Of a DNA stretch of 64,000 nt, positions 45,996-64,000 are shown piece after piece (position 1 is the first letter of the stretch; each line of letters opens with the position of its first letter). Below the pieces are notes generated by a model. The model was not told the DNA's origin. It did no database searches and worked only from the letters and a program-made list of their open reading frames with translations. A program made the translations under genes and the position numbers. Source of the stretch: an uncultured delta proteobacterium. Its GTDB lineage: Bacteria; Chloroflexota; Dehalococcoidia; Dehalococcoidales; BS750m-G39. The DNA is taken from positions 633-64,632 of the forward strand of contig CAVTZP010000002.1 in assembly GCA_963739245.1 (NCBI GenBank). The letters are read 5' to 3'.

Positions 45996-46026
45996 GTATT
46001 ATGAAGTGAGGAGGTAACAGACGCCA

Positions 46027-46119: not shown

Positions 46120-46122
46120 AAG

Positions 46123-46329: not shown

Positions 46330-46335
46330 AGCTAT

Positions 46336-46423
46336 GCCGAGGTGGCGGAAGCTGGTAGACGCGCCATCTTGAGGGGGTGGTGAGCGTAAGCTCGTCGGAG
46401 TTCAAATCTCCGCCTCGGCACCA
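46336..46423 (+). tRNA. tRNA-Leu (GAG)
   Basis: Acceptor GCCGAGG/CCTCGGC; anticodon arm CCATC-TTGAGGG-GGTGG; long variable arm; encoded CCA. Confidence 0.96.
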
Positions 46424-46434
46424 AGAAATAGACT

Positions 46435-46461
46435 CCCACGAAAATCAAGGGTTTTCGTGGG
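46435..46461. repeat. Palindrome in the tRNA spacer, similar to the rplD insertion
   Basis: CCCACGAAAATC-AAG-GGTTTTCGTGGG (12-bp stem, one G:U). Confidence 0.6.
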
Positions 46462-46467
46462 TGATAG

Positions 46468-46542
46468 GCGGAAGTAGTTCAGCGGTAGAACGCCTCCTTG
46501 CCAAGGAGGAGGTCGCGAGTTCGAATCTCGTCTTCCGCTCCA
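46468..46542 (+). tRNA. tRNA-Gly (GCC)
   Basis: Acceptor GCGGAAG/CTTCCGC; anticodon arm CCTCC-TTGCCAA-GGAGG; encoded CCA. Confidence 0.97.
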
Positions 46543-46555
46543 AAAATGGTTGAGA

Positions 46556-46631
46556 GGCGACGTAGCCAAGTGGTTAAGGCGGGGGTCTGCAAAACCCCTA
46601 TTCACCGGTTCGAATCCGGTCGTCGCCTCCA
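46556..46631 (+). tRNA. tRNA-Cys (GCA)
   Basis: Acceptor GGCGACG/CGTCGCC; anticodon arm GGGGT-CTGCAAA-ACCCC; U73 discriminator; encoded CCA. Confidence 0.97.
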
Positions 46632-47190: not shown

Positions 47191-47526
47191 AATGGGCAGG
47201 AATTATTGAGAAAAATATCTGGGGTGAAACAACCATAAAACATGAATGACATTATGCTTAGAAATTGCACATTAGGTAACATTCACTCAGATTGTGCAGT
47301 TCTACCAATTAGATGAACTGCGCAGTGACGCTATACATGCCATCAAACGACTGGTGATACATGCTTAATTAGCTTGAAATCGAATGTTTTGTTGCTCAAG
47401 GTGGGTTAGGAGTGCTTCAGCTCAAAGATTTCTCTCGTTAGATTTATTGTTTCGATTTTCATGTTGCTCCTACCTCCATAAGGTATATTCTACTGAATGC
47501 GTTTGGATAAAGCCAATATTGGGAGT

Positions 47527-47555
47527 TTGACAAGACAGTAGGTAAATGATAATAT
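47527..47555 (+). promoter_or_regulatory. Candidate promoter of mobB-radical SAM-bamB2
   Basis: TTGACA (47527-47532), 17 bp spacer, TAATAT (47550-47555). Confidence 0.65.
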
Positions 47556-47601
47556 TAATATAGCGTAAAATTAACGCAATACTAAATGTGAGATATACTG
47601 A

Positions 47602-48177
47602 ATGATACCAATTATTTCTTTTATTGGCAGTTCCGGTTCAGGTAAGACTACTTTGCTTGAAAAAGTGGTTACCGAGCTTAAAAAACGCGGCATCAGGGTT
47701 GCCGTCATTAAACATTCGCATTATGGCGACCTTGGCTTCGACAAAAACGGTAAGGATAGTCAACGTTATACAACAGCCGGGGCTGAGGTAGTCATTGTTA
47801 GTAGTCCGCAGGAAATAGTCTTCATGAAAAAGACAGATCATGATCTATCACCCGATGAGATTACACGCCTTATTGATCCCGATATTGACCTTGTTCTCAC
47901 CGAAGGTTTTAAAAGTGCTGGTACTTTTAAAATTGAAGTACACCGAAAGGTACTGGAATCAGAGTTGCTGGCAAAGCCAGAGCAGCTTCTGGCGGTGATA
48001 ACTGATGAACCGCTCGATATTCAGGTTCCCCAATTTGATGTAATGAAAAATAATACCGTCGAAATCGCTGATTTAATCGAAAAATGGCTGTCAGGTCAGC
48101 CCAAAAGAGACATTGAACTTGTAATCAATAAAGAATTCGTTGAATTAATAAAGAAAAGCAAGGCACTAAAATTGTGA
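47602..48177 (+). CDS. mobB: Molybdopterin-guanine dinucleotide biosynthesis protein B (copy 1, short C-terminus)
   Basis: G.SGSGKTTLLEK, IKH, GKDS, D..L.EGFK, KIEVHR. Confidence 0.9.
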   Translation: MIPIISFIGSSGSGKTTLLEKVVTELKKRGIRVAVIKHSHYGDLGFDKNGKDSQRYTTAGAEVVIVSSPQEIVFMKKTDHDLSPDEITRLIDPDIDLVLTEGFKSAGTFKIEVHRKVLESELLAKPEQLLAVITDEPLDIQVPQFDVMKNNTVEIADLIEKWLSGQPKRDIELVINKEFVELIKKSKALKL

Positions 48178-48212
48178 GAAGACTAACAGACCATAATAAA
48201 CAATTAAAAAGA

Positions 48213-49337
48213 ATGTATTCTACTAAAGATGGAAGATTGCAGGGAGAAGCTGGTTGGGCGAAACTTGCTTTCTTCTGGTTCATCTTATTTCTATCATACA
48301 AGTGCACAAGAAGGTGTAGCTATTGTTATGCTTTTAATCAAGTTGGTGATGATAATAAGATGGAAATGGATGAGAATACATTTTCAAGGTTATTAGAGTG
48401 GATCCCAGAAGTCTGGAAAGTTAATAACGTTAAAGTGAACGCCATTAGCTTTCTTGGTGGGGAACCATTATTGAGAACGGATAGAATTAAGAAAATTATG
48501 GATTCTGTCTATAAAAATACTGACGGCATGCAGGGAGATGTTTATACAAATGGTGATTTAATAGATTCTGTAAATTGGGATGACCTTGAAGATATCCAAT
48601 GGATGGTAACAAATATTACAGATATTAGTATTGAAGAACTATCGAGAAGAATGAAGATAATCAGCGAAAGGTCAAATGTTAAAGGTCAAACAATAACAGC
48701 TACCTTGGACGATTATAACTTAGAGAGAGTTCTTGATATAACAAGATTCGGAATAGAAAATGGATATCGCTTGAGATACTATAGGAATTTATACCGAGGA
48801 TTGGATACTGAATATAAGAAAATATTATTGAAGAAATATCACGAAGTATGTGATTTATTGGAAAATTATATTATTAAGGGATACGATGTCCAGACTACTT
48901 TCTTGTTTGATACTTTAATTCCTTCCTGGAATCTTGAATCTTCTCCATATCTTTGCGGGAAAAGTATTGCCACAGTATATCCCGATGGAACGGTTGGGCC
49001 ATGTCTTAGAAACCAATCATTTAAAACCGGAACAATATTTGACGCAAATCCTTTAAGTAAAATTCAATGTGACACATTTCTTTATGATTTTAGAAAACCA
49101 GACATCCCGGATGAATGTAGGGAGTGTGAATCTAAAACCGCCTGCCAGGGAGGATGCCCGTTTGATAAGTTGTTGTTGACCGGTACTACATCAGGAAAAT
49201 CTGTTGTATGTGATATACACAAAGAAATTATTCCAAGATTAAGATATTTAGATAAATTAAAAAACGATATGAAAAACCCAGTACATAGAGGTGATAAAAA
49301 TGAGATACGCAGAGACAGGATACAACCTAGAAATTGA
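48213..49337 (+). CDS. Radical SAM protein with SPASM domain
   Basis: CTRRCSYC, GGEPLL, C......PDG.V.PC, CRECESKTACQGGCP...C; start uncertain (48174 GTG or 48213 ATG). Confidence 0.9.
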   Translation: MYSTKDGRLQGEAGWAKLAFFWFILFLSYKCTRRCSYCYAFNQVGDDNKMEMDENTFSRLLEWIPEVWKVNNVKVNAISFLGGEPLLRTDRIKKIMDSVYKNTDGMQGDVYTNGDLIDSVNWDDLEDIQWMVTNITDISIEELSRRMKIISERSNVKGQTITATLDDYNLERVLDITRFGIENGYRLRYYRNLYRGLDTEYKKILLKKYHEVCDLLENYIIKGYDVQTTFLFDTLIPSWNLESSPYLCGKSIATVYPDGTVGPCLRNQSFKTGTIFDANPLSKIQCDTFLYDFRKPDIPDECRECESKTACQGGCPFDKLLLTGTTSGKSVVCDIHKEIIPRLRYLDKLKNDMKNPVHRGDKNEIRRDRIQPRN

Positions 49338-51288
49338 CCTATCCCGAGGAACCATTGAGAGGGTAGCAACTGACCCGAAATTAACCGAACTTCACCTTGG
49401 CGGGTTAGGTACCAGCGTCAAGATGCACTGGGATAGGGTTCCCCCTGAAACTAAACCATTTGATGCCGAGAATCTGCTAATATTCAGCGCCGGTCTTTTA
49501 TGCGGCACACCAGCTTTCAGCTGCAATCGTACCGTTGTTACCTTCGTTTCTCCTCAGTCGGAGTTATTAGCATATCCAATGATGGGGGGATTCTGGGCAC
49601 CAGAACTGAAATTTGCCGGTTATGACAAAGTGGTCATTCAGGGCAAGTCCCCCAAGTGGGTTTATTTGTGGATAAACGATGACAAGGTAGAAATCCGTGA
49701 TGCCTCTCATTTAAAGGGCAAAGGCGCTCTTGAAACTGTAGAGCTTATTCGACAGGAGCTGAATGAGCCGAAAGCCCAGGTGGCAGCTATTGGCCTGGCC
49801 GGTGAAAATCGGGTCTTCACGGCTTCCATCGAGCAGGGCAGGTCCAGCGCCAGCCGACTCGGAGGAGGCGCCGTTATGGGGGACAAAAAATTAAAGGCGA
49901 TAGCTGTTCGTGGAACAAAAGACGTCAATCTTGCCCGAGGGGCTGAATTCATGGAGCATATGAATGCTGTGCTGGAATATATAAAGTTCCGAAATGCAAA
50001 TCCCATTCCAAACGTAATGACCATTTTATCCGGGATTGGGTCGCCACAGGAGATGAAAAACACTGATGAGAAGTGGCACACTGAAAGTTTCATGTGGGGA
50101 AATGCCCGTGTTCGGAGAAGAGACTTCTGGACCAAGGAACACGAAGAGGAATGGACGACGACTCAATTAAGTGCGATAAAGCGGCTAATAAGTTGCTATA
50201 ACTGTCCGCAGCAATGCGGAGCATTAATTTCCTACAAGGATGTTCCAAATTACATGGCGAAATGCTTCGGGAAACTTACCTATTCAATGGCGGCCCAGGT
50301 AGACAGGCTGGATTTTAACTTTAGAATCCTTCAGCGTGCTACGGAGTATGGAGTGGACTCATTCTCAACCCCGCAAATTTTGGCCTTCGGTGTCGAGCTC
50401 TATGAAGCCGGCATTCTAACTGACCAGGACATGCCAGGATTTCCGTCCGATAACGAGGGGAGATTTTTCTGGTTGCTTGACCGGGTTGCCCGGCGGGAAG
50501 GAATTGGAGATATTCTGGCCGACGGCACTTATTGGGCGGCCAAAAAGATTGGCAAGGGCGCAGAAGTATTTGCTCATAATATCATCAAGAAACACGAGCA
50601 GCTTCCTCTCAAGCTGGGAACGCTGGATCCCCTTTATTTCCTTATGTATTCTACCAACGAGAAGATAAGCATTACCCAAATTGAAGGGAATTGGCCCCAG
50701 GCGGCTTTCCCGACGAGGGAGGAGAGAGAAGAGTTTGTAAAGGATTGGCCCCAGCTTCCTGATGAAAAGTTTAAGCAATATTTACTGGACTGGGAACCAC
50801 GGGGAGATCACGGGATACCATATTTCCCAACTCCTGAAATGTGCTGCGAAATTGTGGATTGGATGGAGACGCTGCACAACATTGATGACGCCATCGGATT
50901 GTGCGCCGGTATGGGATCATTTTGCTTAAAGCCTCCCTATCATATACACAATTACCCGAAAATAATCTCGGCGGCGACTGGGATGGATATAGATGAAGCC
51001 GGACTAAAGAAAATAGTCAGGAGGAGCCGTAATTTACACAGAGCATTTAATGTAAAAAGAGGCATGAGGAGAGCTGATGAGAAGCCGCCTGAAGACCATT
51101 GGAAAAAAAGATATCCCGAGCTCGAAGAAAAACTCCTAGATACGTATTACAAATTCAAGGGATGGAATAATGACGGTATTCCTACTAAAGAAACTTTACG
51201 GGAATTAGATTTGGGTTATGTTGCGGAAGACTTAGAACAGAGAGGGATACTAAAAAACGGCCAATCCGACCACCCCGACCATAAATAG
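49300..51288 (+). CDS. bamB: Tungsten aldehyde-oxidoreductase family, class II benzoyl-CoA reductase catalytic subunit BamB paralog
   Basis: MRYAETGY.LE.DL, MMGGFWAPELK, SIEQGRSSASR, SPQEMK..DEKWHTE, SCYNCP..C, KCF, KKHEQLPLKL; E251, H260 and C322 fall at the residue numbers I recall for Geobacter BamB. Confidence 0.9.
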   Translation: MRYAETGYNLEIDLSRGTIERVATDPKLTELHLGGLGTSVKMHWDRVPPETKPFDAENLLIFSAGLLCGTPAFSCNRTVVTFVSPQSELLAYPMMGGFWAPELKFAGYDKVVIQGKSPKWVYLWINDDKVEIRDASHLKGKGALETVELIRQELNEPKAQVAAIGLAGENRVFTASIEQGRSSASRLGGGAVMGDKKLKAIAVRGTKDVNLARGAEFMEHMNAVLEYIKFRNANPIPNVMTILSGIGSPQEMKNTDEKWHTESFMWGNARVRRRDFWTKEHEEEWTTTQLSAIKRLISCYNCPQQCGALISYKDVPNYMAKCFGKLTYSMAAQVDRLDFNFRILQRATEYGVDSFSTPQILAFGVELYEAGILTDQDMPGFPSDNEGRFFWLLDRVARREGIGDILADGTYWAAKKIGKGAEVFAHNIIKKHEQLPLKLGTLDPLYFLMYSTNEKISITQIEGNWPQAAFPTREEREEFVKDWPQLPDEKFKQYLLDWEPRGDHGIPYFPTPEMCCEIVDWMETLHNIDDAIGLCAGMGSFCLKPPYHIHNYPKIISAATGMDIDEAGLKKIVRRSRNLHRAFNVKRGMRRADEKPPEDHWKKRYPELEEKLLDTYYKFKGWNNDGIPTKETLRELDLGYVAEDLEQRGILKNGQSDHPDHK

Positions 51289-51365
51289 GAGAAGCAGGCT
51301 CTAGACAACCTGAACCGGGCGGGCTCCCCGAAAAGCCATGGTTCAGCAAGCATCGAAGGCTTCGA

Positions 51366-52013
51366 TTATGAGGATTTCTTCTTCAGGAAAATCTGGACGC
51401 TTGTAATCTCTTTTACCCCCTTGAGAGATGAGGCGATAGCGGTAACGATATTGCTAATAATCTCTCTGGGGAAGATACTCAGGGATATAGGGGCGTTGTT
51501 TACACAAAGTATGACGCGTTCACTTTGTGGTTTGATAAAACCTTGCTCCAAAAGGTCGGCTAAGCCTTTAATATCATCAAGGGGGAACTGCCTGGTCTTG
51601 GTTTCCACAGGTTCGTCGGTGACTATGGCGCAAAGCTTCTTAACAGAAGCAAAGGGTGGGCCGGCTTCCTTGCGGTGAACCTCTATTTCGGGCGCATCGC
51701 CCTCTTTGAAGCCTTCACTCAGGATGATGTCATAATCCTCGCCAAGGAAGCGGGCTATCTCCTCAAGGCTAGTATCTGGGGCAATAGGTTTGATTAACAT
51801 AATCTTATCTGAGCCACTAATAATGGTAGCCTCGCTTCCAGCCTGGATGTGGCGCCAGCTATCCTTACCCGGCTCGCCAAGGGTCAGGTTTTGGCGGGTG
51901 TGCTTAATGGTAGCCACCCGATAGCCCCTTGATTTTAGCTCCTGAACCAGCTTCTCAATAAGGGTCGTTTTTCCTGATTTTGTTTTACCTATAATTGAAA
52001 CGATGGGAGGCAT
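51366..52013 (-). CDS. mobB: Molybdopterin-guanine dinucleotide biosynthesis protein B (copy 2, C-terminal extension)
   Basis: GKTKSGKTTLIEKL, TIKH, GKDSWRH..AG, EGFK, IEVHR. Confidence 0.9.
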   Translation of the reverse strand: MPPIVSIIGKTKSGKTTLIEKLVQELKSRGYRVATIKHTRQNLTLGEPGKDSWRHIQAGSEATIISGSDKIMLIKPIAPDTSLEEIARFLGEDYDIILSEGFKEGDAPEIEVHRKEAGPPFASVKKLCAIVTDEPVETKTRQFPLDDIKGLADLLEQGFIKPQSERVILCVNNAPISLSIFPREIISNIVTAIASSLKGVKEITSVQIFLKKKSS

Positions 52014-52238
52014 TGTTTATCGCTTTCGTGTTGAGTTAACGGTATGAAACCAGGGAGTTATGATAACACACTGCCAATATGCTGTCAAAGAATTGGATAC
52101 CTCTAGCCTTTTGGTATACATTTCGGTTATAATTATAGGCAACGTTTTCGGTTAAATTCGGAACCCAACCATTGAAAATCGGCATTCGATATTTGATGCC
52201 TAGAATTTAGATTCATCTGGATTAAGGGGGAATAAATA

Positions 52239-54272
52239 ATGCAGGGTACAGTCTACTTTTATTTGCTGTTCTGGGGAGTATTTATCGTGTCCTTGGGAGT
52301 ATTCATGTATCGTACCAGACAGCTATGGCAATATATGTTCCTGGGACAGAAAGAAAGCACGGCGGGCAGGCTAAGGCAGATCGTTAATACTCTAGTCTAT
52401 GTTTTCAGTCAACTTTGTCAGCTCAAAAACTTCCGCTCTAAAGACCGGGCACCTTTAGGTCATGCCTTGCTGGTATGGGGTTTCTTTGTTTCCGTACTCT
52501 TTTATTTCTTCTTTATTATACTCTCGGAAGGTCTTGGTCTAGTTGGTTTACAGGATACACAGTTCTATTTCTATTTCACCTGGATAATGGACTTCATGGC
52601 TGCCTTCATCTTCATCGGCGCGGCGTGGGCTCTCATCAGGCGGTATATCATCAGACCGGCCCGCCTTAAAGGAGAGCAGACCTGGGAGGCATTTATCATC
52701 CTCCTTTCTGTATTGGCCCATCCCGTCACCCATGTTTTTGAAGTCGGAACGAAGATTGCCCTGGGGGATGCGCCCGCGGGGCTGGGACACACCTTATTGC
52801 CACCGATTAGCGCCTGGATCAGTAACTTGTTTGTGGGAAATCCTGGCCTGGATGGATGGCATATCGGTTTCTTCTGGGCACACTGGCTCACTGTGGTCCT
52901 GGTGTTGATCCTCATTCCTTATACAAGATACATACATATTATAGCCTCCGTCTTCAATGGAATTCTGCGTAACCCCCAGCGTATGGGTACGTTGAAATCA
53001 ATTGACCTTGAAAACGCAGAGTCTTTCGGGGCAGCAAAAATCGATAGTCTTAGCTGGAAGCAAAACCTGGACTTATATTCCTGCGTGGTCTGCGGCAATT
53101 GCCAGGAGTTGTGCCCGGCTTACGCCACCGGCAAACCACTTAACCCCAAGAAGGTGATTCAAGACCTGAAAAAACAACTCTTAAAGGTTGGGCCGGTAAT
53201 ATTAAAAGCGAGGGCAAAAGGTGGAGAGGTACCGGCAGACATTAATGTCACTCTGGCAGGGAATATCGTTACCGAAGATGAGATATGGGCATGCACCACC
53301 TGTGGCGCCTGCGATAATGTTTGTCCGGTCTGGGTAGACCACATCGATAAGCTGGTAGACCTCAGGCGTAACCTCATTCTCGAACAATCTGCTATGCCAG
53401 ATACCGCTAAGGTAGCCCTTGAAAGTATTGAGAAACGGGGTCATCCCTGGCGCGGGACTACTATGACCCGTACCGATTGGACACAGGGACTTAATATCAA
53501 GACTATGTCTGAAAATGCCAATGTGGACATTCTCTTCTGGGTCGGTTGTACGGAAGCCCTGGAAGATAGGAGTCTCAGGATATCTCAAGCGTTCGCCAGG
53601 GTAATGCAGCAAGCAGGAATTAATTTTGGTATTCTCGGTACAGAAGAAAGTTGCTGCGGCGACCCGGCGCGCCGCTTAGGCAATGAATACCTCTTCCAGA
53701 TGCAGGCACAGAAAAATATCGAGGTCTTAAAGGGTTATAACGTTAAGAAGATAGTTGCCGCCTGCCCGCACTGTTATAACACCCTGAAGAATGAGTATCC
53801 CCAGTTCGGCGGCAACTTCGAGGTCATTCACCATACCGAATTCATTGGTAACCTTATTAAAGAAGGTAAGCTACAAATTAATAAAGGTGGCTACGGGAAA
53901 ATCACCTATCACGATTCCTGCTACTTAGGACGGCATAACGAGATTTACCAGCCTCCCCGGCAAGTACTGAAATCTCTACCTGACATCAAGCTGGTCGAAA
54001 TGGAGAATAATAAAAAACGTGGCTTTTGCTGCGGGGGTGGCGGCGGCCAGATGTGGATGGAAGAGCGCATTGGTACCCGTATATCCGAAAACCGGATGGA
54101 CCAGATAATTGCCACCAGAGCTGACATGGTAGCCACCGCCTGTCCTTACTGCCTACAGATGTTCGATGATGCCATCAAAGCCAAACAGGTTGAGGAAAAG
54201 CTGAAGGTAAAGGATATCGCCGAGATTATTGCCGAATCAGCTCAGACGAAGAGAAAATGTGCCTTCCTCTGA
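52239..54272 (+). CDS. Membrane-bound heterodisulfide-reductase-like (HdrE/D, FadF-type) Fe-S oxidoreductase
   Basis: N-terminal TM helices with His; CVVCGNCQELCP, CTTCGACDNVCP; two CCG domains (SCCGD, FCCGGGG). Confidence 0.88.
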   Translation: MQGTVYFYLLFWGVFIVSLGVFMYRTRQLWQYMFLGQKESTAGRLRQIVNTLVYVFSQLCQLKNFRSKDRAPLGHALLVWGFFVSVLFYFFFIILSEGLGLVGLQDTQFYFYFTWIMDFMAAFIFIGAAWALIRRYIIRPARLKGEQTWEAFIILLSVLAHPVTHVFEVGTKIALGDAPAGLGHTLLPPISAWISNLFVGNPGLDGWHIGFFWAHWLTVVLVLILIPYTRYIHIIASVFNGILRNPQRMGTLKSIDLENAESFGAAKIDSLSWKQNLDLYSCVVCGNCQELCPAYATGKPLNPKKVIQDLKKQLLKVGPVILKARAKGGEVPADINVTLAGNIVTEDEIWACTTCGACDNVCPVWVDHIDKLVDLRRNLILEQSAMPDTAKVALESIEKRGHPWRGTTMTRTDWTQGLNIKTMSENANVDILFWVGCTEALEDRSLRISQAFARVMQQAGINFGILGTEESCCGDPARRLGNEYLFQMQAQKNIEVLKGYNVKKIVAACPHCYNTLKNEYPQFGGNFEVIHHTEFIGNLIKEGKLQINKGGYGKITYHDSCYLGRHNEIYQPPRQVLKSLPDIKLVEMENNKKRGFCCGGGGGQMWMEERIGTRISENRMDQIIATRADMVATACPYCLQMFDDAIKAKQVEEKLKVKDIAEIIAESAQTKRKCAFL

Positions 54273-54875
54273 CTCAGCTTCGAAAGAAGGTGAGGAAGAC
54301 TTTAGAGCTTCAATAAGGACGTAGGCGGCTTGCAGTGCCTCTGTAGGGCAAAGCGGAAAACATTCTTTGCAGTTCCAGCATTCCTTGGAGGCTATCTCCG
54401 GAATGAAACTTATCTCTCGCCTTGTTCCTCTGTCGACAAAGCCGATAGCGTTCTTCTTCTTGACCTCAGCACAGTATCTAACACATAGACCACAAAGAAT
54501 GCAAAATGAGTGCTCTTTTTCAAAATGGGCTTTATTTGCTCCATACTCTTGAGCCAAATCCTGCAATACCCCGGCTTCTGGAGCATGAGCTAGCACCAGC
54601 TCCAAAAGCATTTTGCGAATTTTATCTACCTTCTCCGACCTGGTTCTTACCACCAAATTTTCTTCAACGGGGTAAAGACAGGCAGCAACGAGATTTGTCC
54701 TACCGCGAGTCTCTACTTCTACTGTGCAAATTCGGCAGGCCCCATAAGGTTCTAATTTCTCGTGGTGGCAAAGTGTAGGAATAGATATCCCCGCACTTTG
54801 GGCTGCCTCCAAAATGGTCATCCCTTCCCTGGCTTTAACTTCTCTTCCATCAATCTGTAAAATGATTTCACTCAT
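54237..54875 (-). CDS. bamI: BamI / NuoG N-terminal-like Fe-S subunit
   Basis: IPTLCHH..L.P.GACR.C.VE, CILCGLCVRYC, CWNCKECFPLCPT; position after bamH. Confidence 0.82.
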   Translation of the reverse strand: MSEIILQIDGREVKAREGMTILEAAQSAGISIPTLCHHEKLEPYGACRICTVEVETRGRTNLVAACLYPVEENLVVRTRSEKVDKIRKMLLELVLAHAPEAGVLQDLAQEYGANKAHFEKEHSFCILCGLCVRYCAEVKKKNAIGFVDRGTRREISFIPEIASKECWNCKECFPLCPTEALQAAYVLIEALKSSSPSFEAESEEGTFSLRLS

Positions 54876-56800
54876 CTTTCTTTACTCTCTCTGGCTATAA
54901 CCCTTGCTTCTTCAGGTATGGGAGACGGAACAGGCTCGCCAGAAATCTTCTTCACCGCACCAAAACGAGGGGGGCAAACTTCAAAACAAGTTCCGCACTT
55001 TGTGCATTTCTCCTGGTCGATTACATGGATCTGTTTCTTGTCACCTACAATCGCCCCGGCAGGGCATTGCCTAAGGCAAATCATACAGGCCTGGCACTTC
55101 TTTGGGTCGATATAGTACGAGATTAGCTCCTTGCAGAAATAAGCTGGGCACCTCTTCTCCTTGATGTGTGCCTCATACTCGTCCCTGAAGTAGCGTATCG
55201 TGCTTAGAACCGGGTTAGGGGCAGACCTGCCTAAAGCGCAAAGCGAGGCATCTCTTGTTACCTCGGCTAGCTCCTCCAAAAGCTCGATGTCGCCCTCTCT
55301 TCCCTTTCCTTTGGTGATATTAGATAGAATCTTAAGCATCTGCCTGATGCCTTCACGGCAGGGGACACATTTGCCACACGATTCATCACTGAGGAAGTTA
55401 AGGAAGTACCTGGCGACATCAACCATACAGGTATCTTCATCCATTACAATCATCCCACCTGAACCCATCATTGAGCCAACCTTGGTGAGTTCATCGAAAT
55501 CAACTTTCATATCCAGCTGTTCCGCGGGGATGCATCCTCCGGATGGACCCCCGGTCTGCACTGCTTTGAACTTCTTACCTGTGGGGATGCCACCACCTAT
55601 ATTAAAAATAATCTCTCTTAAAGTAGTGCCCATGGGTACTTCAACTAAGCCAGTATTATTGACTTTGCCCACGAGGGAGAACACCTTTGTGCCTTTGCTT
55701 CCTGCGGTGCCGAGACCGGCAAACCAATCAACGCCCTTGTTGATTATCTGAGGGACAAAAGCCCATGTCTCAACATTATTCAAGTTGCTGGGTCTATCCC
55801 AAATGCCCTTAATGGCGGTGTGGATATACTTCGGTCTGGGCTCTCCTACCCTGCCTTCTATTGCCGTCATCAGAGCACTCGATTCACCAGAGACGAAAGC
55901 ACCGGCTCCTTGGTGTACTTTAACAGTGAAATCAAAGCCTGAGCCAAGGATATTTTTGCCCAGGAGACCATACTCCTCAGCCTGCTTGATAGCGATGGTC
56001 ACATTCTCTACTGCTAAGGGGTATTCCTGTCGAACGTAAATATAGCCCTCGTGAGAACCAATGGCATAGGCTCCGATGATCAACCCCTCAAGAACCATGT
56101 GAGGGTTCCCCTCAAGTTCAGCTCTATTCATATAAGCTCCGGGGTCTCCCTCGTCGGCATTGACGATCACATACTTTATCTCACCGGGGGCATTGCGACA
56201 TTCCTCCCACTTTCTCCCTGCGGGAAATCCACCGCCTCCCCTCCCTCTCAGGTTAGATTTTTTCACTTCCTCCAATACTTGCTCGGGGGTCATCTGGGAA
56301 AGAACTTTGGCCAAGGCAGAATAACCACCGAGCGCCAGATAGTCATCGATGTTCTTAGGGTCAATTCTTCCGTTGGAACCCAAAACAAGCCGCTCCTGGT
56401 TCTTGTAGAAGGGAATTTCAGATTCATGAATTATCTTTTCATTGGTGTTGGGGTCGGTATAGAGTAAACGCTCTATGACCTTCTTCTCCTTTATGGTCTG
56501 GGAGACAATTTCGGGAACATCCTTAGGCTCTATCTGTAAGTAACATATTTCCTCAGGGTGAATAACTATGATAGGGCCCCTCTCACAAAAACCATGGCAA
56601 CCAGTCCTTCTAAAGTCTACCTCGGCGCTTAATCCTTGTTTTTTAATCTCCTCTTCAATACTCGCCGCAATTTCGCCGCTACCGGAAGCGTGGCAAGCAG
56701 TTCCGGAACAGAGTGTAATACAAGGCTTATTCGGGTCTCTTTTGGACAGGATTCCCTTCCTGAGTTCTTCCAATTCAGCGGGTGATTTTATCCGCGCCAT
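54872..56800 (-). CDS. bamH: BamH / NuoF-like NADH-binding FMN subunit with 2x[4Fe-4S] tail
   Basis: LRGRGGGGFP.G.KW, NADEGDPGA, G.GGPSGG, ESCGKC.PCREG, CALG, C..C..C...CP twice. Confidence 0.88.
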   Translation of the reverse strand: MARIKSPAELEELRKGILSKRDPNKPCITLCSGTACHASGSGEIAASIEEEIKKQGLSAEVDFRRTGCHGFCERGPIIVIHPEEICYLQIEPKDVPEIVSQTIKEKKVIERLLYTDPNTNEKIIHESEIPFYKNQERLVLGSNGRIDPKNIDDYLALGGYSALAKVLSQMTPEQVLEEVKKSNLRGRGGGGFPAGRKWEECRNAPGEIKYVIVNADEGDPGAYMNRAELEGNPHMVLEGLIIGAYAIGSHEGYIYVRQEYPLAVENVTIAIKQAEEYGLLGKNILGSGFDFTVKVHQGAGAFVSGESSALMTAIEGRVGEPRPKYIHTAIKGIWDRPSNLNNVETWAFVPQIINKGVDWFAGLGTAGSKGTKVFSLVGKVNNTGLVEVPMGTTLREIIFNIGGGIPTGKKFKAVQTGGPSGGCIPAEQLDMKVDFDELTKVGSMMGSGGMIVMDEDTCMVDVARYFLNFLSDESCGKCVPCREGIRQMLKILSNITKGKGREGDIELLEELAEVTRDASLCALGRSAPNPVLSTIRYFRDEYEAHIKEKRCPAYFCKELISYYIDPKKCQACMICLRQCPAGAIVGDKKQIHVIDQEKCTKCGTCFEVCPPRFGAVKKISGEPVPSPIPEEARVIARESKER

Positions 56801-56809
56801 AATTTTCCC

Positions 56810-57262
56810 CTAATCATAGTTTTTTAACACGTCTCCTGTCTTGGCTGGTACCATCTTACCGTGATACTTCCCATCAACTTCCATCACCGGTCCTAAAGCA
56901 CAGCAGCCGAGACAGTTAACAGTCTCCAGGCTAAACTTTAAATCCGAGTCCGTTTCGCCAGGTCTAATTCCAATCAGGTCTTGAACCGTGTCAAGGACTC
57001 GCGGCGCACCACGAACATGACAGGCAGTACCCATACAAATATGAATTTCATGACGTCCTTTAGGAACTAAACTAAAGGCTTTATAAAATGTAGCTATATG
57101 CTGTATCCGGCTTAAAGGCACTTGTAATTTCTTACTGACCTTCTCTAATACTTCCTTGGGAAGCCAGCGATTTTCGCTCTGAATCTCCAGTAATATTTGA
57201 ATTAGCGAATCGGCTTTGCCCTGATGTTTATCAATAATCTGCTCGATTTTACCCTCATCCAT
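56810..57262 (-). CDS. bamG: BamG / NuoE-like [2Fe-2S] subunit
   Basis: ATFY..F, C.GTACHVRG, V.CLGCC..GP. Confidence 0.88.
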   Translation of the reverse strand: MDEGKIEQIIDKHQGKADSLIQILLEIQSENRWLPKEVLEKVSKKLQVPLSRIQHIATFYKAFSLVPKGRHEIHICMGTACHVRGAPRVLDTVQDLIGIRPGETDSDLKFSLETVNCLGCCALGPVMEVDGKYHGKMVPAKTGDVLKNYD

Positions 57263-57291
57263 AGCTGCTGTCCTAACCCTCTTCTTTCACT

Positions 57292-58059
57292 TTAAGCGGG
57301 AACAAAACGCTTCTGGCTTTCGTCAAACCTGATTAATCCTTGCCTTGCTGAACTATTAAGGTGTCTTGATACTTCAGACGGATTTAAGCCTAAAATCTCA
57401 GAAATTTCTCCAGTGGAAAGGGGCCTTTCTCGCAGGAGTAACATAATTTGGCTTATTGCCAATTTATCTACAATTAATTCATGAAATAACCTATCTAACT
57501 CCTCACTGGTGAAAAATTTCTTATATTCTTCGTCTGTAGCAAAATGCACTCTCAGCCTCTCCCTTTCCACCAGCTTAATGTAGGGGACTAAATTTTTAAC
57601 TGCTTCAAGTTTTAACTTTAATCCCTTTTCATCTATTCCTTCGCCTTTTCCCAGAGGTCCTAATTCCTTCAGCTTCTTGGTAAAGTCAGTAATAACTTCG
57701 GCGAAACGGATTCCTTCAGAGGCAGATACCCATTCCAGCCTTAGCCTTTCGGGGTTCACCCCTATCTGTCCCAGTAATTTTTTAGTTAGATGCATCATGC
57801 TTAATGCATCGTAATTTCCCTCCGTGATGTAATGGCATTCGCCAAGCCAACAACCGCCGATAAACACCCCGTCTGTTCCGTTTGAGAAAGCCCGGAGTAT
57901 AAATGCCGGGTCAACTCTACCGGAGCACATCACCCTTATCACCCTTATATTAGTGGGGTATTGATACCGGGAAACTCCGGCAAGGTCTGCCCCTGCGTAG
58001 CAACACCAATTACATAAAAACCCTAACATCCTTGGTTCAAAATCGTAGCTCGCAACCAT
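57292..58059 (-). CDS. bamF: BamF / MvhD-like subunit with C-terminal winged HTH
   Basis: FLCNWCCYAGAD.AG, CSGRVDP, GC..GECHY..GN, W.SASEG; C-terminal PLSTGEISEILG..PSEVSRHL. Confidence 0.85.
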   Translation of the reverse strand: MVASYDFEPRMLGFLCNWCCYAGADLAGVSRYQYPTNIRVIRVMCSGRVDPAFILRAFSNGTDGVFIGGCWLGECHYITEGNYDALSMMHLTKKLLGQIGVNPERLRLEWVSASEGIRFAEVITDFTKKLKELGPLGKGEGIDEKGLKLKLEAVKNLVPYIKLVERERLRVHFATDEEYKKFFTSEELDRLFHELIVDKLAISQIMLLLRERPLSTGEISEILGLNPSEVSRHLNSSARQGLIRFDESQKRFVPA

Positions 58060-58093
58060 GTCTTAGCTCACTCCTAAGGTAATCCCTCTTTGT

Positions 58094-61000
58094 TCATACA
58101 AGGGCTTGAACCTTCGCCAGGTCTGGAACCGCCGCGTCAATTTGGCGAAAGATCTCTTCATCAGTAAAGTGCTTCAGAGAAATAGCCCCTGTCGGACACT
58201 TCGAATTACAGAGACCGTCTCCCTTACAGAGGACAGGAATAACCCTGGCCTTTTTGCCTTGTGGTGTATCATAAAACTCTATAGCACCATACTTACAAAC
58301 CGAAATACAAGCCCCACACGCTATACACTTACTCTCATTTACCTCGCAAATAGCACCAGAGGCGGTGACTGAATCCTTGGAAAGAATGGTTGCCGCCCGG
58401 CCGGCAGCTCCGTAAGCCTGGCTAATCGCTTCCGATATATGCTTGGGGTAGTGAGCCATCCCGCACAGGAAAACGCCATCGGCAGCAAAATCAACCGGCC
58501 GTAATTTTACATGGGCTTCCTGGAAGAAACCATCCGGGTTCAAAGGTACCTTGAATAACCGGGATATTTCAGTATTCGTTGCCGAAGGAATAACGGCGGC
58601 AGCTAAAGCGAGTAAATCGGCATCTATAGCAATTTTCTTACCTAAAATCGGATCGGTCACGGTAACCCTTAGAATACGCTGACCACCCTCTTCGATAGCT
58701 TCCACCTCGGGTTTATCATCCGGCTCATAGCGGATGAACTTCACTTCCCGCTCCGCCGCTTCCCGGTAATAATCCTCTTTAAACCCATAAGTTCTCATAT
58801 CCCGATAGATAATGTAGATATCCATCTCGGGGTTTTTCTCTTTTAGTTTCAAGGCGTTCTTTATAGAATGACTGCAACATACCCGGCTGCAATAATTTCT
58901 GTCTTTTTGTCGGCAACCTACACATTGAATCATCACCAGGCTCTTGGCGTTAACCACCCTCGGTTCCCCTTTGGCGATTTGCTCCTCTAACTCCACCAGG
59001 GTCAATACCCTGTCATCTTTCCCATAAAGGTACTCGGTAGGTTTATATTCTTCAGCACCGGTAGCGATGACGGCTATTCCATGGTGTATCTCCCTGACCC
59101 TTCCTCCAGACGTTACCTTGGTTATGAAATTCCCCACATAACCGGAAGCCTCGGTGATGGTAGAATCAGTAGATACTTGTGAATTAAGGGGTGCTGGTAA
59201 ACCTTGCGGATAATATCACTCAGATATGCTTGAACATCCATCCCTTCCAGGGTGTAATGAATTCTTCGAGCCATTGGGATGCTGGTTAACTCGGCGTATG
59301 ACTTCGGCCAGGTATGTTTGTACATCCATGCCTTCCAGGGTGTAATGAAGCTCTTCGCGCCATTCCCCCCAACTCTGTATCCTTTTCCACCAGGTAAACC
59401 TCAAATCCCTGGTTGGCTAAGCTCAGAGCACTGGTCATCCCGGCCACGCCTCCGCCGACTACTAACGCCCTTTTGTCGACCGGCAGGTCAAATTCCTGTA
59501 AAGGCTGTAAAAGAGCGGCTCGGGCTACCGACATCCGGACTATATCCTTTGCCTTTTGGGTGGCAGCTTCCTTTTCTCGAGAGTGGACCCAGGAGCAATG
59601 TTCCCTTATATTGGCAAATTCAAAGTAATATTGATTAATTCCCCCCTCGCGAAGCGTATCCCGGAATAACGGCTCATGTGTCCTGGGGGTACAGGCGGCG
59701 ACAACCACGCGATTGAGTCCCTTTTCTTTGATTGCGTCTGCTATCCGTTGGGCAGCATCAGTAGAACACGAAAAGAGGTCTTCTTGAGCGTGGACAACAT
59801 TGTCTAGGGTCAAAGCATATTCAACTACCGAAGGAACATCCACCACTCTTCCGATATTAGCTCCACAATGACAGACAAAGACCCCCACCCTTGGTTCCTC
59901 ACCTCGAGACATCCCTTTCCGGTGGATATACCCTTTCTCTGGCCAGCTTCCCTCGCCGGTGGGCAAGGAGTTGACTGCAAAGGGCATCAGCCCCGCTGGC
60001 GGTCATAACCGACTCGGGGATATCTATAGGACCCTGGAAGGCTCCGCTGACAAAAATTCCCGGGCGGGAGGTCTCAATAGGAGTAGCAGGATTGGTTTTG
60101 CAGAATCTGGTGAGCGTTAAGTTCGATGCCGAACTTATCAGCCAATTCTTCCACATCATCAGGAGGGTTCAACCCGACGGATAATACCACCAGGTCGAAT
60201 TCCTCTTCCTTTACTCCGTCATCGGTAGTAGAGTATTTTATGGTTACATTCTTGCTTTCTGGCAGCTCTTTCCCTATTGATACGTAGCTTCTTATAAATC
60301 GAACGCCGGGAAGGTTCTCCGTTCTTTGATAGAATCGCTCGAAGTCCTTGCCAAATGACCGAATATCATTATGGAATATAGTAGCCTCAATCTCACTGTC
60401 ATGGTCTTTTGCCAGAATCACCTGCTTCTGGGTGTAGGTGCAGCATACGGCTGAACAATAGCTGTTGCCGCCCGGGATAACCTGTCTGGAACCGACGCAC
60501 TGAATCCAGGCTATCTTCTTCGGATGCTTCCCGTCAGAAGGGCGCCTTATCTCACCTTCGTAAGGCCCGGTGGAACATAATATCCGTTCAAAGTCAAGGC
60601 TGGTTACTACATTCCTGAACTTTCCGTAGCCATAGTCGCCCCTCAGCTTGGGGTCAAATGTCTCATAGCCCGGAGACAGAATTATCGCCCCTACCTCTAC
60701 TTCTACCTTCTCCTCCTTTTGATGAAGGTCTATAGCGTTATTCTTGCAGACTCCTACGCAAATGTTACATTTTCCGTCTTTAAGGAAAAGGCAGGTTTCA
60801 GGGTCTATATAAGTGACAAGCGGAACTGCTTGAGAAAAGTATATATGGCTGCATTTACTAAAAGATAAGTTTTGATTATATTTATTGGGGACCTTAACCG
60901 GGCAGTACTCAGTACAGGTAGTACAACCCCGGCATTTGTCATCTGATAATGTATCTGGGCTTTTTAATCAGGGTTACCTTGAAGTCTCCTGCTTCCCCTT

Positions 61001-61298
61001 CTACCCTGTCAACTTCAGTATAGGTCAGGATTTCTATATTGGGATGCCGGCTGCATTCAATAAACTTGGGAGATTCAATGCACATGGAGCAGTCATTGGT
61101 GGGGAAGGTCTTATCAAGCTGGGCCATCTTGCCGCCGATAGCCGGTGATTTGTCAACCAAGTAAACCTTAAAACCCATATCGGCCAGATCAAGGGAGGCT
61201 TGGATACCGCTGATCCCTCCACCGACAACCATAACATCGCCAATATTACTTTCTGCGGGACTATTAACTAATTGTCCTTCAACTGGTTCTTTTTCCAC
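58094..61298 (-). pseudogene. bamE: BamE / HdrA-like flavoprotein, broken by about six indels and an internal duplication (pseudogene or sequence error)
   Basis: Fragments join into HdrA: [23 protein letters not shown]...YCS.VCC, GVFVCHCG.NI, AACTPRTHE, GGGVAG, QCVGCR, FFQEAHVKLRP; frame changes near 60944, 60108, 59904, 59351, 59275 and 59177. Confidence 0.85.
59188..59363 (-). repeat. Diverged tandem duplication of a 29-codon segment inside bamE
   Basis: Copy 1 at 59275-59363 and copy 2 at 59188-59274 both encode MARRxHYTLEGMDVQxYLxxxIRxVxQHP. Confidence 0.9.
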
Positions 61299-61331
61299 TT
61301 TTCTCCGTCCTTATCAGGATTCTTCGCTTCC

Positions 61332-62475
61332 CTAAATCACTTCCTGGATAATTTCTGTGATGTCTTTAATCTCTATGACTTCACTATTCTCCAGGGTTAA
61401 CCTGCTATCCTCAAAATTGATGATGCAATATGGGCAGGAAGTAACCAGCACCTCAGCCCCGACCTCAATAGCTTGTTCTAATCTGAGGTCGGAGAATCTT
61501 TCACCCTTTGGAGTGTCCATCCAAATCCTGCCTCCTCCCCCTCCGCAACAGAGACTATCTTCCCGCGAATCAGCCATCTCAATCAGTTCTAAACCAGGTA
61601 CCTTCTTTAAGACCTCTCGGGGTTCGTCATATATGCCATTATGCCGACCCAGGTAACATGGGTCATGATAAGTAACTTTCTTCCCATACTCCTTGGTGAG
61701 CTCAAGCCTTCCCTCATTAATAAGCTCGAATAAATATTGGGAGATATGAACCACCTCAAAGTTGACCTTAAATTCGGGATACTCGTTTTTGAAGGTGTGG
61801 TAGCAATGAGGGGAAGAAACAAGGATTTTCTTCACCCCATTATCGATAAAAGTTTTGATGTTTTCCCTGGCTAAGCGTTTGAATAATTCCTCATCGCCCG
61901 CCTTGCGGATGCTTTCTCCACAGCAATTCTCCTTGGGACCCAGTATCCCAAAATCTACCCCTGCCCTGTTAAGGATATTGGCTGTGGCAGTAGCTACCTT
62001 TTTTAATCTTGGGTCATAGCTGAGGTAGCAGCCGGGGAAATATAAAATTTCCGTCCCCTCGGTGAACGTTTTTACAGACAGACCTTCTGCCCAATCTGCC
62101 CTCTTTGCTCGTTCTTCACCCAAGGGGTTACCTTCAGCACCGAGGCTTGCACTTACGGTGTGGATTGGAGCCGGAGAAATCCCTGCTTCCGAGGCAATCC
62201 TGCGGAAGGATAGCACTAACGTCTATCGTTCCTACTCCCCTGGGGCACCGCTGAGGGCATCTTCCGCAGGTAGTACAACGCCATATATCTTCACCTTCTA
62301 TCTCAGGCAAACCGAACGTAGCCTGTCGGACTATGTTGCGCATACTGAAGTTTCTAACCCTGTTCCACGGACAAACAGTATCACACAATCCGCATTGATA
62401 GCAGAATTTGAAGGCTTCTCCACCAGCCTCTTTTATGGCATCTATTGCCTCTTTGAAGGGGGCTACAATCTCCAC
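61332..62475 (-). pseudogene. bamD: BamD / HdrCD-like protein with one frameshift near 62216
   Basis: CYQCGLCDTVCPW and CTTCGRCPQRCP in 62134-62475; CCG motifs (NCCGE, SPHC, YHDPCYLGRHN, LCCGGGGG) in 61332-62216. Confidence 0.85.
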
Positions 62476-62508
62476 TATCTTTTAATCCTCTTCTTTCGCC
62501 TTAATGTT

Positions 62509-63033
62509 TTAGCCCTTTGCTAATCGGGTAACGGTATCCATTACCTTCTTCACTCCATGTTTTTTTACTAATGATTCTAATCCTATCTCCATCTCCTCCC
62601 GCTTCTCTTCTTCTTCCCCTTCCTCTTCCCTTTCTTCGTAAGTCAGGGCATCATTTAAGCACCACTGAACACACATCGGCTCTTGTAGTGGCGGTTCTTC
62701 TTCACACATATCACATTTTAGAGGGAGATCGGAATCAGGGTCTTTGAAAAGCTTCCGGGATGGGCAGGAAGCCCGGCAGAAGCCACACTCGTCATATTCC
62801 TTTCCGTCAATCGTATAAATGTCTCTGCCATTACATTCGGCTTCAGTATACTCACCGGCAATTACCGGAACATAAATATCTTTTAGTGGCTCAAAAAGCA
62901 CCCGAATCCGAGACCTCTCCGGATTAGTGCTGCTATATTTTGGCGCAGCGTGAAAGGCGGAGCAGATTACCTCACATGCCCGGCAACCATTGCATTTATC
63001 AACATCGATCTTGATTACTTTAACTTTTTTCAT
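62509..63033 (-). CDS. bamC: BamC electron-transfer Fe-S subunit
   Basis: IDVDKCNGCRACEVICSAFH, RSRIRV, ECGFCRASCPSR, LPLKCDMCE..P...EP.CV.WC; in frame with the bamB C-terminus. Confidence 0.87.
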   Translation of the reverse strand: MKKVKVIKIDVDKCNGCRACEVICSAFHAAPKYSSTNPERSRIRVLFEPLKDIYVPVIAGEYTEAECNGRDIYTIDGKEYDECGFCRASCPSRKLFKDPDSDLPLKCDMCEEEPPLQEPMCVQWCLNDALTYEEREEEGEEEEKREEMEIGLESLVKKHGVKKVMDTVTRLAKG

Positions 63034-64000
63034 TTCTTTATAAATCCCTCTTTGTTCTAAGTCTTCGCTAACGTAATCCAAACCTAATTCGTGCAAGGTC
63101 TCTTTAGTAGGAATACCTTCATTATTCCATCCCTTAAATTTATAATACTCGTCAAGCAGCTTAGCTTCAAACTCAGGGAATCTCTTCTTCCAATGGTCCT
63201 CAGGAGGCTGCTCGTCCTTTCTCCTTAAGCCTCTTCTTACATTAATGGCTCTAATTAAAGTTCGGTTCCTTTTAGCTATTTTCCATAGTCCAGCTTCATC
63301 AATATCCATCCCGGTCGCAAATGAGATTAAACGTCGGTAAATTGTGTATATGATACGGAGGCTTCAGGGGAAATGATGACAAACCGGCGCAGATCCCGGT
63401 GGCGTCATCAATGTAATGCATCGTCTCTTGCCATTCAACAAGTTCACAAGTTGCTTGAATAGATGGGTAATATGGAAATGAGGTGCCTGGTTCCCCCCAG
63501 TTCAAGATAAATTCCTTAAACTTTTCCTTAGGAACCTGGACCCAATCCTTTACAAACTCTTCTCTCTCCTCTCTGGTAGCAAAAGGCGCCTGGGGTAACT
63601 GCCCTTCAATTTGGGTAATGTTGATTTTCTCACCTGTGGACCACATGAGAAATAAATAGGGTTCAGCATCCCTAGTTTGATAGGGATCTGCTCATGTTTC
63701 TTAATAGTATTATGGTCGTAGGCCTCAGCCCCCTTGCCAATCTGACGGGCCGCCCAATAAACACCATTGGCCAAAACATCTCCAATCCCTTCTCGCCGAA
63801 CAATTTTGTCAAGCAACCAGAAGAATCTCTCCTCGTTATCGGACGGAAATCCTGGCAGGTCCTGGTCAGTCAAAATGCCAGCTTCATAAAGCTCAAGGGC
63901 GAAGGCCATAACTTGCGGGGTTGTGTATCCGTCCACTCCATACTCCTGAGCAAGACCAGCGATTTTAAAACCAAAATCCAGGTCTGACATGGCCGCCATT
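63034..64000 (-). pseudogene. bamB: BamB C-terminal part (5' end outside the window), two frameshifts, no stop before bamC
   Basis: EYGVDG...PQVMAFA.EL, KKHEQ.P.KL, GEKINITQIEGQ, MHYIDDA.G.CAGLSSFPLKPPYHIHN, HWKKRFPE; indels near 63650 and 63327. Confidence 0.87.

Follow-up and report, generated by a model that had tools for sequence, protein, structure and literature searches.

Does the class II benzoyl-CoA reductase (BCR) gene cluster at one end of a Dehalococcoidia contig encode a working enzyme, or is it an operon in decay? The stretch analysed here, called the window, is 64,000 nt of DNA corresponding to positions 633-64632 of contig C2 (65,691 nt) of metagenome-assembled genome (MAG) bin G000, which comprises 1.35 Mb in nine contigs. 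Dehalococcoidia are among the most abundant bacteria of anoxic soils and sediments and are known chiefly for organohalide respiration. Where the reduction of aromatic rings has been reported from the class, it has mostly involved the class I enzyme, which depends on ATP (PMC5736913, PMC10570749); bam genes are mentioned only in survey lists, and a cold-seep survey records bam or bcr genes for MAGs of Dehalococcoidia (PMC7673041). The data presented below make it likely that the locus is genuine and probably functional, and that its distal part in the deposited contig, the ~6.5 kb that begin at ~59.17 kb and run to the contig end, is a consensus of mixed populations.

An initial annotation, made from the sequence alone, had described a minus-strand bamB-to-bamI gene order with the expected domains. 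Gene calls from an open reading frame listing, six-frame reading and Pfam bear this out for the deposited sequence, in which bamB-C-D-E-F-G-H-I follow one another on the minus strand, read from the contig end inwards, in an order that is far beyond chance. A second bamB gene lies farther inside the window. The bam genes as deposited are:

63036..64000 in the window (start at window-equivalent 64986 on C2), minus strand: bamB1, with AFOR_C Pfam matches (aldehyde oxidoreductase (AOR) family).
62512..63035, minus strand: bamC, a polyferredoxin of the Fer4 family, 93% amino acid identity to the intact copy on contig C3.
61335..62481, minus strand: bamD, HdrD/HdrBC-like, with Pfam Fer4_8 and two CCG domains; 2 x 4Fe-4S.
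58097..61298, minus strand: bamE, a fused double HdrA, broken into six frames in the window; 662 bits to HdrA 5odc_A.
57292..58059, minus strand: bamF, an MvhD-like adaptor with a C-terminal winged helix-turn-helix (wHTH); FlpD 178.6 bits, HTH_5, and 166.8 bits to MvhD 5odc_D.
56810..57262, minus strand: bamG, a NuoE-like [2Fe-2S] subunit; 2Fe-2S_thioredx 172.4 bits.
54872..56800, minus strand: bamH, a NuoF/HydB-like flavin mononucleotide (FMN) subunit with C-terminal 2 x [4Fe-4S]; Complex1_51K, NADH_4Fe-4S and Fer4.
54237..54875, minus strand: bamI, a [2Fe-2S] + 2 x [4Fe-4S] subunit; Fer2_4 and Fer4_7.
49300..51288, plus strand: bamB2, an intact BamB; 1046 bits over the full length of 4Z3W_A.

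By its sequence, this locus is predicted to encode a genuine class II BCR, as the initial annotation had proposed. When read through both of its frameshifts, BamB1 scored 1094 bits against Geobacter metallireducens BamB (4Z3W_A, residues 1-649); its best AOR match was 232 bits, and neither BamB1 nor BamB2 exceeded 232 bits to any AOR. Cys322, Glu251, Glu257, His260 and the FeS cluster cysteines were invariant in alignment A1, which contains BamB1 (read-through), BamB2, four relatives and 4Z3W_A. These residues are among those that define BamB, and Cys322 is a protein-derived tungsten (W) ligand that is absent from AOR members other than BamB and YdhV (PMC12096430). The BamB1 stretch SPQEMAIHDEEWH contains all four of the residues Glu251, His255, Glu257 and His260 (Zn site/proton conduit). 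Three of the four (E251, E257 and H260) are kept in the BamB2 stretch SPQEMKNTDEKWH, where H255 is replaced by Thr, and Thr255 occurs in alignment A1 in BamB2 alone. More broadly, members of the BamB2 clade (G023, G017, G021 and G028) have Thr or another residue at the His255 Zn site, with the motif SPQEMK[NH]TDEKWH, and the BamB1 clade retains His255; the presence of a preceding radical SAM/SPASM gene also separates the two clades.

The remaining subunits BamD-I were compared in the PDB with Hdr, Mvh and HydB relatives. BamD of the C3 copy is 383 aa long with Fer4_8 and two CCG domains, and bamE of that copy is a 1058-aa open frame; BamE (1035 aa) has two Pyr_redox/FAD regions plus Fer4, and its match to 5odc_A falls in three stretches. 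Window bamD and bamE have the same domain content as the C3 copies, split by insertions. In BamF (255 aa), FlpD spans residues 12-134 and the HTH residues 204-251; MvhD chains of 129-141 aa match residues 6-143, beyond which lies a wHTH extension of ~110 aa. Residue 19 of BamF is Cys, and in-frame TGA read-through was not required in any gene. BamH scored 769-812 bits against B subunits of electron-bifurcating hydrogenases. The window's bamF, G, H and I are all intact, and the BamGHI input module is backed by contigs from the sister samples described below.

It was the distal genes, as deposited, that had led to functionality being called doubtful. Two frameshifts interrupt bamB1, at ~63333 (+1) and ~63650 (-1); owing to 2 nt inserted at 63035, its reading frame runs on into bamC as a fusion. 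In bamD the frame is split by a single nucleotide inserted at 62213, which is found neither in C3 nor in any relative or metagenome contig examined. Insertions of 1-2 nt occur in bamE at 60946, 60106, 59907, 59353 and 59171, together with a diverged 88-nt tandem duplication:

59188-59275 / 59276-59364, no strand assigned: 88-nt "tandem duplication" in bamE, its copies 78.7% identical to each other.
58253..59187, no strand assigned: crossover zone, in which C2 and C3 are 98-99.5% identical by sliding identity, against ~94-95% on either side.

Relative to C3, each frameshift in window bamC-bamE is a 1-2-nt insertion at a non-homopolymer site. Homopolymer sequencing errors were ruled out, as none of the insertions lies in a homopolymer. 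Selenocysteine (Sec) was likewise ruled out as a cause of the broken frames, the breaks being 1-2-nt insertions and not TGA codons, and BamF having Cys19.

A second copy of most of the locus is present in the bin. Window 51358-63065 (mobB, a membrane HdrD-like gene, and bamI to bamC) recurs on C3 at 7702-19308 with 94-95% identity. There, bamC, D, E, F, G and I are intact and bamH has a 1-nt insertion; each subunit is thus intact in at least one of the two copies. A PaaX-family regulator, not bamB, precedes bamC on C3. Beside the C3 copy lie cob genes, a TauE-like gene and fdhD, a flank that is syntenic with window 37.7-40.7 kb at only 80-84% identity and whose nearest matches (85%) are in other genomes of the same genus. 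This would fit a second, species-level population, designated B, better than a recent duplicate.

The arrangement of the locus in a natural population could be read from sister samples, X25-X28, four soil-metagenome runs from one study, sequenced on Illumina (adapter sequences at contig ends). They contain 0.94-0.95 of the sampled words of window 36-46 kb, and overlapping contigs in their independent assemblies tile window 28-59.17 kb at constant depth (~20x and 14x in two runs), with ~0.1% differences up to 46 kb. Over the locus, all four runs have a single contig layer whose depth, 11-21x, is that of the flanks. These contigs follow window 46.6-59.17 kb with differences that climb from ~0 to 1.5%, in steps of 1 in 3952 nt, 7 in 2653, 8 in 1051, 14 in 1250 and 17 in 1168; in the bamB2 area (window 47.6-51.5 kb) they differ by only a few letters. 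They skip the 88-nt duplication, joining 59171 to 59276 with 14 replacement letters, and beyond this joint are 4.8% different from the window. Compared with C3, the same contigs differ by 4.6-6.7% to the left of ~15.0 kb and by 1.3% between 15.0 and 18.9 kb; starting at 17.8 kb, across bamC and paaX and farther on, 0-3 letters differ. C3 5600-7400 had almost no X25-X28 coverage at >=90% identity, and no contig in these runs matched bamB1 at >=95% identity. None carried any of the window insertions in bamE and bamD, or the C3 bamH insertion.

Since one contig layer at flank depth is window-like up to 59.17 kb and C3-like thereafter, the strain in the sister samples has one intact locus that joins C2 to C3. 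Its layout is mobB-rSAM-bamB2, mobB, HdrD-like gene, bamIHGFEDC and paaX, where rSAM is the radical SAM/SPASM gene. The neighbour of bamC is the paaX-like gene, and bamB2, the only bamB, lies 12 kb away on the other strand. The full bamBCDEFGHI order therefore stands for the deposited contig and not for the main population, in which bamC is beside the paaX-like gene and bamB2 (49300-51288) is detached: bamB and bamC are fused in the window as assembled, adjacent in many relatives and apart in the sister samples. The part of this layout to the left of bamI comprises, besides bamB2:

52239..54272, plus strand: membrane-anchored HdrD-like Fe-S protein; N-terminal hydrophobic part, Fer4 and two CCG domains (Pfam).
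51366..52013, minus strand: mobB, second copy; MobB 133.8 bits.
48174..49337, plus strand: radical SAM/SPASM gene before bamB2 (Pfam); it also precedes bamB in G021 and G028 (synteny).
47602..48177, plus strand: mobB, first copy; MobB 132.5 bits.
47473..47601, no strand assigned: 129-nt segment with an inverted copy, 97% identical, on C3 20145-20273, upstream of the paaX-like gene.

The two inverted 129-nt segments flank the ~15.5-kb locus, one upstream of mobB-rSAM-bamB2 and the other upstream of paaX-bamC, and sister-run contigs have branching loose ends at 47473. The segment may be a duplicated promoter or leader, and recombination between its inverted copies would invert the entire locus.

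Comparison of the two copies with the sister strain, designated A, identified C2 and C3 as reciprocal mosaics: C2 is of type A on the left and type B on the right, C3 is the reverse, and both switch in the same 1-kb zone. At 30 of the 38 listed differences between the window and sister strain A (51.8-58.3 kb), the window has the C3 (B) base. The A-like part of the window is sprinkled with B alleles, which become denser toward the switch point. Private substitutions among three taxa numbered 36 in C2, 132 in C3 and 226 in G005, a count that alone cannot tell a mosaic from a pure lineage. The contig is thus most likely chimeric, although not at the ribosomal/bam boundary that the initial annotation had named as the place of concern; the switch lies inside bamE, at ~59.17-59.36 kb.

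Most of the window insertions unite two allele types at adjacent-base differences. At 59907, C3 reads CCT[CG]GAC, G005 and G013 read CCT[GA]GAC, and the window reads CCT[CGA]GAC. The alleles at 60106 are [CT] and [TC], with [TCT] in the window, and those at 60946 are [G] and [A], with [GA] in the window; sites 59353 and 59171 show an allele-union pattern like that at 59907. Similarly, the first copy of the 88-nt duplication is G005/G019-like (B type) and the second is C3-like (A type). A pile-up consensus of mixed reads yields a union allele if it keeps the insertion half, and not the deletion half, of a two-base difference. Union alleles are not predicted by mutation.

Selection on the genes points in the same direction. 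The ratio of nonsynonymous to synonymous divergence (dN/dS) between C2 and C3 was 0.25, 0.12 and 0.31 for the "broken" genes bamD, bamE and bamC, compared with 0.29, 0.22 and 0.17 for the intact bamF, bamG and bamI, and no in-frame stops were present in the bam genes compared between C2 and C3. The nine to ten relatives all have each of bamB, C, D and E in a single frame, bar one in-frame stop in bamB of G019 (KIG*GAE at codon 418; L015, G019:C30 ~7560-7570), a gene that is otherwise conserved. The frameshift alleles of the window, including both bamB1 indels, were absent wherever contigs of six further metagenomes (X1, X2, X4, X7, X51 and X52) cover the sites. Because most of the insertions are allele unions, because some ten indels with no raised dN/dS, no stops and no other lesion are unlike decay, and because the relatives and the further metagenomes lack the alleles, the frameshifts and the 88-nt "duplication" are most likely products of A/B blending in the assembly consensus and not of decay. 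The bamB1-bamC fusion is possibly a product of the same blending. Since the indels look like consensus artefacts, function is less doubtful than it had seemed.

The junction of bamB and bamC has a feature of its own. BamB of G005 and G019 ends in a Lys-rich tail in which the first bamC codons (AAAAAAGTCAAGGTAA) recur two to three times ahead of the true start of bamC (regions compared: window 63020-63060; L016 3950-4130; L015 6790-6910). The window is without this repeat tail, and RGIYKE-MKKVKVIK is read there as one frame, the BamB-BamC fusion. The missing tail represents either a repeat-mediated deletion or an assembly collapse where A/B homology ends.

Taken together, these data suggest the following arrangement. 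The population A locus would begin on the left with a 129-nt repeat, mobB-rSAM-bamB2 rightward, mobB leftward and the membrane HdrD-like gene rightward, and continue with bamI-H-G-F-E-D-C leftward, a paaX-like regulator leftward and the inverted 129-nt repeat, so joining C2 to C3; all of its genes would be intact, with bamB at the far end of the locus, away from bamC. Population B would be the source of the right end of the window (~59.17 kb to the contig end) and of the left end of C3 (1 to ~15.5 kb), with a locus ~94-95% identical to that of A and bamB1 directly before bamC. The two would have been blended in the assembly consensus around a nearly identical stretch of ~1 kb. For the B part, no run in run searches rose above a share of 0.46, and wetland, mangrove, marine and seawater runs all stood at a flat ~0.4, which reflects a multitude of related strains and not a single source. 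In X51 and X52, where the B flank is best represented, the contigs over the cluster are only 130-300 nt long, too short for B to be reconstructed, and raw reads of run X24 contained almost nothing of the region.

The host had been described as Dehalococcoidia-like, and this placement holds, judged by kinship to named Dehalococcoidia genomes and not by a marker-gene tree. A member of the same GTDB family, G023, has a contig identical to JASFEJ010000013.1, deposited as "MAG: Dehalococcoidia bacterium", and the order of the bin also includes complete one-contig genomes of 1.4-1.9 Mb, these being without BamB. Ribosomal superoperon genes (EF-G, L2, SecY and RpoA, at 1.7-18 kb) are on the same contig as the bam genes. 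Contiguity of bam with this superoperon, as originally claimed, is upheld for the A-type bam part, which matches the rest of the contig in depth and is tiled onto it in four independent assemblies; the last ~5 kb of the window are not trusted as continuous with the remainder.

BamB at E <= 1e-150 was found in 13 of 251 genomes sampled across the class and is common in the bin's own family; G001 and G003, of the same genus, are without a bam cluster. The usual layout in the family is paaX, (mobB, rSAM), bamB, C, D, E, F and then a ferredoxin piece of ~90 aa with 2 x [4Fe-4S], which matches the C-terminal domain of BamH (58-74% amino acid and 73-81% nt identity). Such short-form loci were found in G019 (L015), G013 (L017), G015 (L018), G014 (L019), G009 (L020), G023 (L021), G017 (L022), G021 (L023) and G028 (L024). 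In several relatives, not including G021 or G028, a co-directional membrane HdrD-like gene follows the ferredoxin piece. The relatives' loci lack bamG, bamI and the FMN body of bamH, and the BamGHI module is present only in bin G000 among 30 genomes of the family.

The bam block has a GC content of 45-49%, compared with ~52% elsewhere, and BamB proteins from Desulfobacterota MAGs (Desulfomonilaceae, Syntrophaceae and Syntrophorhabdus) share 79-83% identity with BamB2. Because the block is accessory in the genus, is lower in GC and encodes a BamB2 resembling Desulfobacterota BamB, it was probably acquired horizontally, yet is resident in this Dehalococcoidia lineage. Window 45800-46600 contains a tRNA-like sequence and short dispersed repeats (46332-46421 and 46457-46542, with copies on C5, on C7 and elsewhere in C2), and a drop in GC from ~0.51 to 0.40-0.47 coincides with this boundary; the region is a plausible insertion point of the block.

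Genes for neighbouring steps of the pathway are found elsewhere in the genome. The cut-offs were 464 bits for Oah, 339 for Had, 375 for benzoate-CoA ligase and 292.5 for Dch (TIGR03189). Oah (522.9 bits) and Had (476 bits) are both above their cut-offs and are encoded side by side on C5, and a benzoate-CoA ligase scoring 635 bits, also above its cut-off, is encoded on C7. The oah (bamA-type) and had (bamQ-type) genes form an isolated two-gene unit (G000:C5 223363-225592) with no adjacent dienoyl-CoA hydratase gene. For the Dch step the genome offers a generic enoyl-CoA hydratase as its only candidate; the best (C5 202369-203106) lies 20 kb from oah/had, among several enoyl-CoA hydratase genes. 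One electron-transfer flavoprotein (ETF) alpha is encoded on C5. No class I BCR subunit in the genome reached its cut-off.

With the enzyme of Geobacter as a model (bioRxiv 10.64898/2026.04.10.717634), electron flow through the complex may be envisaged as follows. By analogy, reduced ferredoxin and NADH would enter at BamGH by confurcation, and electrons would pass by way of BamI and of BamF, the adaptor (with Cys instead of Sec19), to BamE's bifurcating FAD. The electron of low potential would travel through BamC to the W-pterin of BamB, where benzoyl-CoA would be reduced to 1,5-dienoyl-CoA, and the high-potential electron by way of BamD to ETF, and from there probably to the HdrD-like membrane protein whose gene adjoins bamI. 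The latter, which scored 361.6 bits against 9ojn_A, an "iron-sulfur-binding reductase", is a candidate ETF:quinone-type (EMO-like) exit for high-potential electrons. Had and Oah on C5 and the benzoate-CoA ligase on C7 would complete the pathway. Genuine class II genes, the intact locus in the sister samples and the presence of Oah, Had and the ligase thus sustain the proposal that the lineage can dearomatise benzoyl-CoA without ATP; such a capacity is very likely, with the activity itself predicted from the genes.

Several observations weigh against a functional locus blended from two populations. Neither the insertion at 62213 nor either of the bamB1 indels can be clearly read as a union of alleles. 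Of the frameshifts, one falls in the B-like part of C3 (7.8 kb) and about nine in that of C2 (6.4 kb), an imbalance that a simple "low coverage of B" model leaves unexplained. No Dch in the genome is above the TIGR03189 cut-off, the best scoring 144.7 bits against 292.5. X25-X28 are near-identical sister samples and not the proven source of the bin, and rare variants are lost from Logan contigs, so that both copies could truly be present in the sequenced strain. In such a genome, a B-type locus would have integrated by a single crossover inside bamE, or a segment would have been duplicated, and the redundant copies would be decaying complementarily (bamB1, D and E on C2; bamH on C3) while gene conversion homogenised them. 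The reciprocal structure of C2 and C3 is exactly what single-crossover integration yields, each subunit does survive in at least one copy, and gene conversion could give the gradient of B alleles. We nonetheless regard real duplication as unlikely. In the sister samples, where the same strain differs by just a handful of letters in the flanks, the locus is present once, at single-copy depth, and B flanks are missing; the ten or so private indels come with neither a stop codon nor a rise in dN/dS; most of these indels combine both alleles where adjacent bases are substituted, an outcome not predicted by mutation; and the C3 flank is only as similar to window 37.7-40.7 kb as that of another species would be. 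That two diverged 11.7-kb bam copies coexist with complementary frameshifts, a complete enzyme arising only from their union plus the detached bamB2, is judged decidedly unlikely.

The initial annotation viewed the cluster as a single contiguous bamBCDEFGHI operon, and real indels in it would mean that the operon is undergoing pseudogenisation. The indels are indeed in the deposited contig, and both the absence of the cluster from G001 and G003 and the lower GC of the block could suit an accessory operon on its way out. We consider this very unlikely, given that the second copy in the bin has intact bamC, D and E, that the sister assemblies are intact with another right-hand neighbour, that dN/dS reveals no relaxed selection, and that the frameshift alleles are in none of the other runs examined. 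The low GC and the 79-83% identity of BamB2 to Desulfobacterota BamB might instead suggest that the bam part is Desulfobacterota contamination, binned with or joined to a Dehalococcoidia contig. We rejected this as extremely improbable: in independent assemblies, contigs of equal depth overlap one another all along window 28-59 kb, and many genomes of the same family, one of them deposited as "Dehalococcoidia bacterium", carry syntenic paaX-bamBCDEF loci at 64-94% nt identity. An intact class II locus in population A, with a blended consensus at the contig end, remains the explanation that best accommodates these observations.

Strain variants appear to be unresolved elsewhere in the assembly too, since other contig ends overlap one another, at 96-99.8% identity over 0.6-5 kb. 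The overlaps are C6 42704-47852 with C9 75285-80432, C4 159314-162090 with C6 1-2776, C5 1-2370 with C8 1-2371, C2 1-858 with C8 19600-20431, and C5 248567-249213 with C7 264447-265086. The bin could probably be closed further, its contig ends carrying strain-variant sequence, and findings at contig ends of G000 call for caution. In addition, C1 1-8974 and C7 136058-144439, and likewise C1 32775-34901 and C7 133987-136097, share multi-kb regions at 86-91% identity, which are either paralogous blocks or further second-population sequence.

For this locus, the textbook gene order and the frameshifts at the contig end are most likely assembly products, and it would be mistaken to label the locus a pseudogenised operon or to call bamB1 this organism's gene. 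The kind of enzyme is itself already known; what is new here is a long-form, Sec-free class II locus in Dehalococcoidia. A complete and apparently intact long-form enzyme, together with oah, had and a CoA ligase, is encoded in a very small soil/sediment genome, and energy-limited ring reduction is therefore plausible there. The absence of Sec from the locus would ease heterologous expression.

The closest known system in overall composition is the Geobacter metallireducens complex Bam[(BC)2DEFGHI]2, for which BamBC crystal structures (4Z3W-4Z40) and a whole-complex cryo-EM structure (bioRxiv 10.64898/2026.04.10.717634) are available. The two share the same eight subunit types and the same domain make-up, including BamE as a fused double HdrA, BamF as a long MvhD with a wHTH, and a NuoEFG/HydABC-like BamGHI; the B-to-I order is shared in the window as assembled, and the W-ligand Cys322 and the E251/E257/H260 proton path are kept. 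In Geobacter, BamF is a [2Fe-2S] adaptor that resembles MvhD, exceeds it in length by more than 100 aa, and has a wHTH and Sec19 (10.64898/2026.04.10.717634), whereas residue 19 is Cys here. There are further differences. In the main population bamB is detached from the other bam genes: it follows mobB and a radical SAM/SPASM gene at the far end of the locus and is encoded on the other strand. The Zn-site His255 is Thr in BamB2, two mobB genes and one membrane HdrD-like gene lie within the locus, and the operon begins with the gene of a PaaX-type regulator. The host is a Dehalococcoidia genome of ~1.35 Mb. The short-form loci of the family have the paaX-like regulator and bamB-F in the same order, with bamC-E 64-94% identical at the nt level, whereas the present locus has in addition bamG, a full bamH and bamI. 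The class I, ATP-dependent BCR (bcr/bzd-type) of marine Dehalococcoidia (DEH-J10, DscP3/Dsc4; PMC5736913) serves the same metabolic step in the same bacterial class but belongs to an enzyme family unrelated to the class II enzyme described here.

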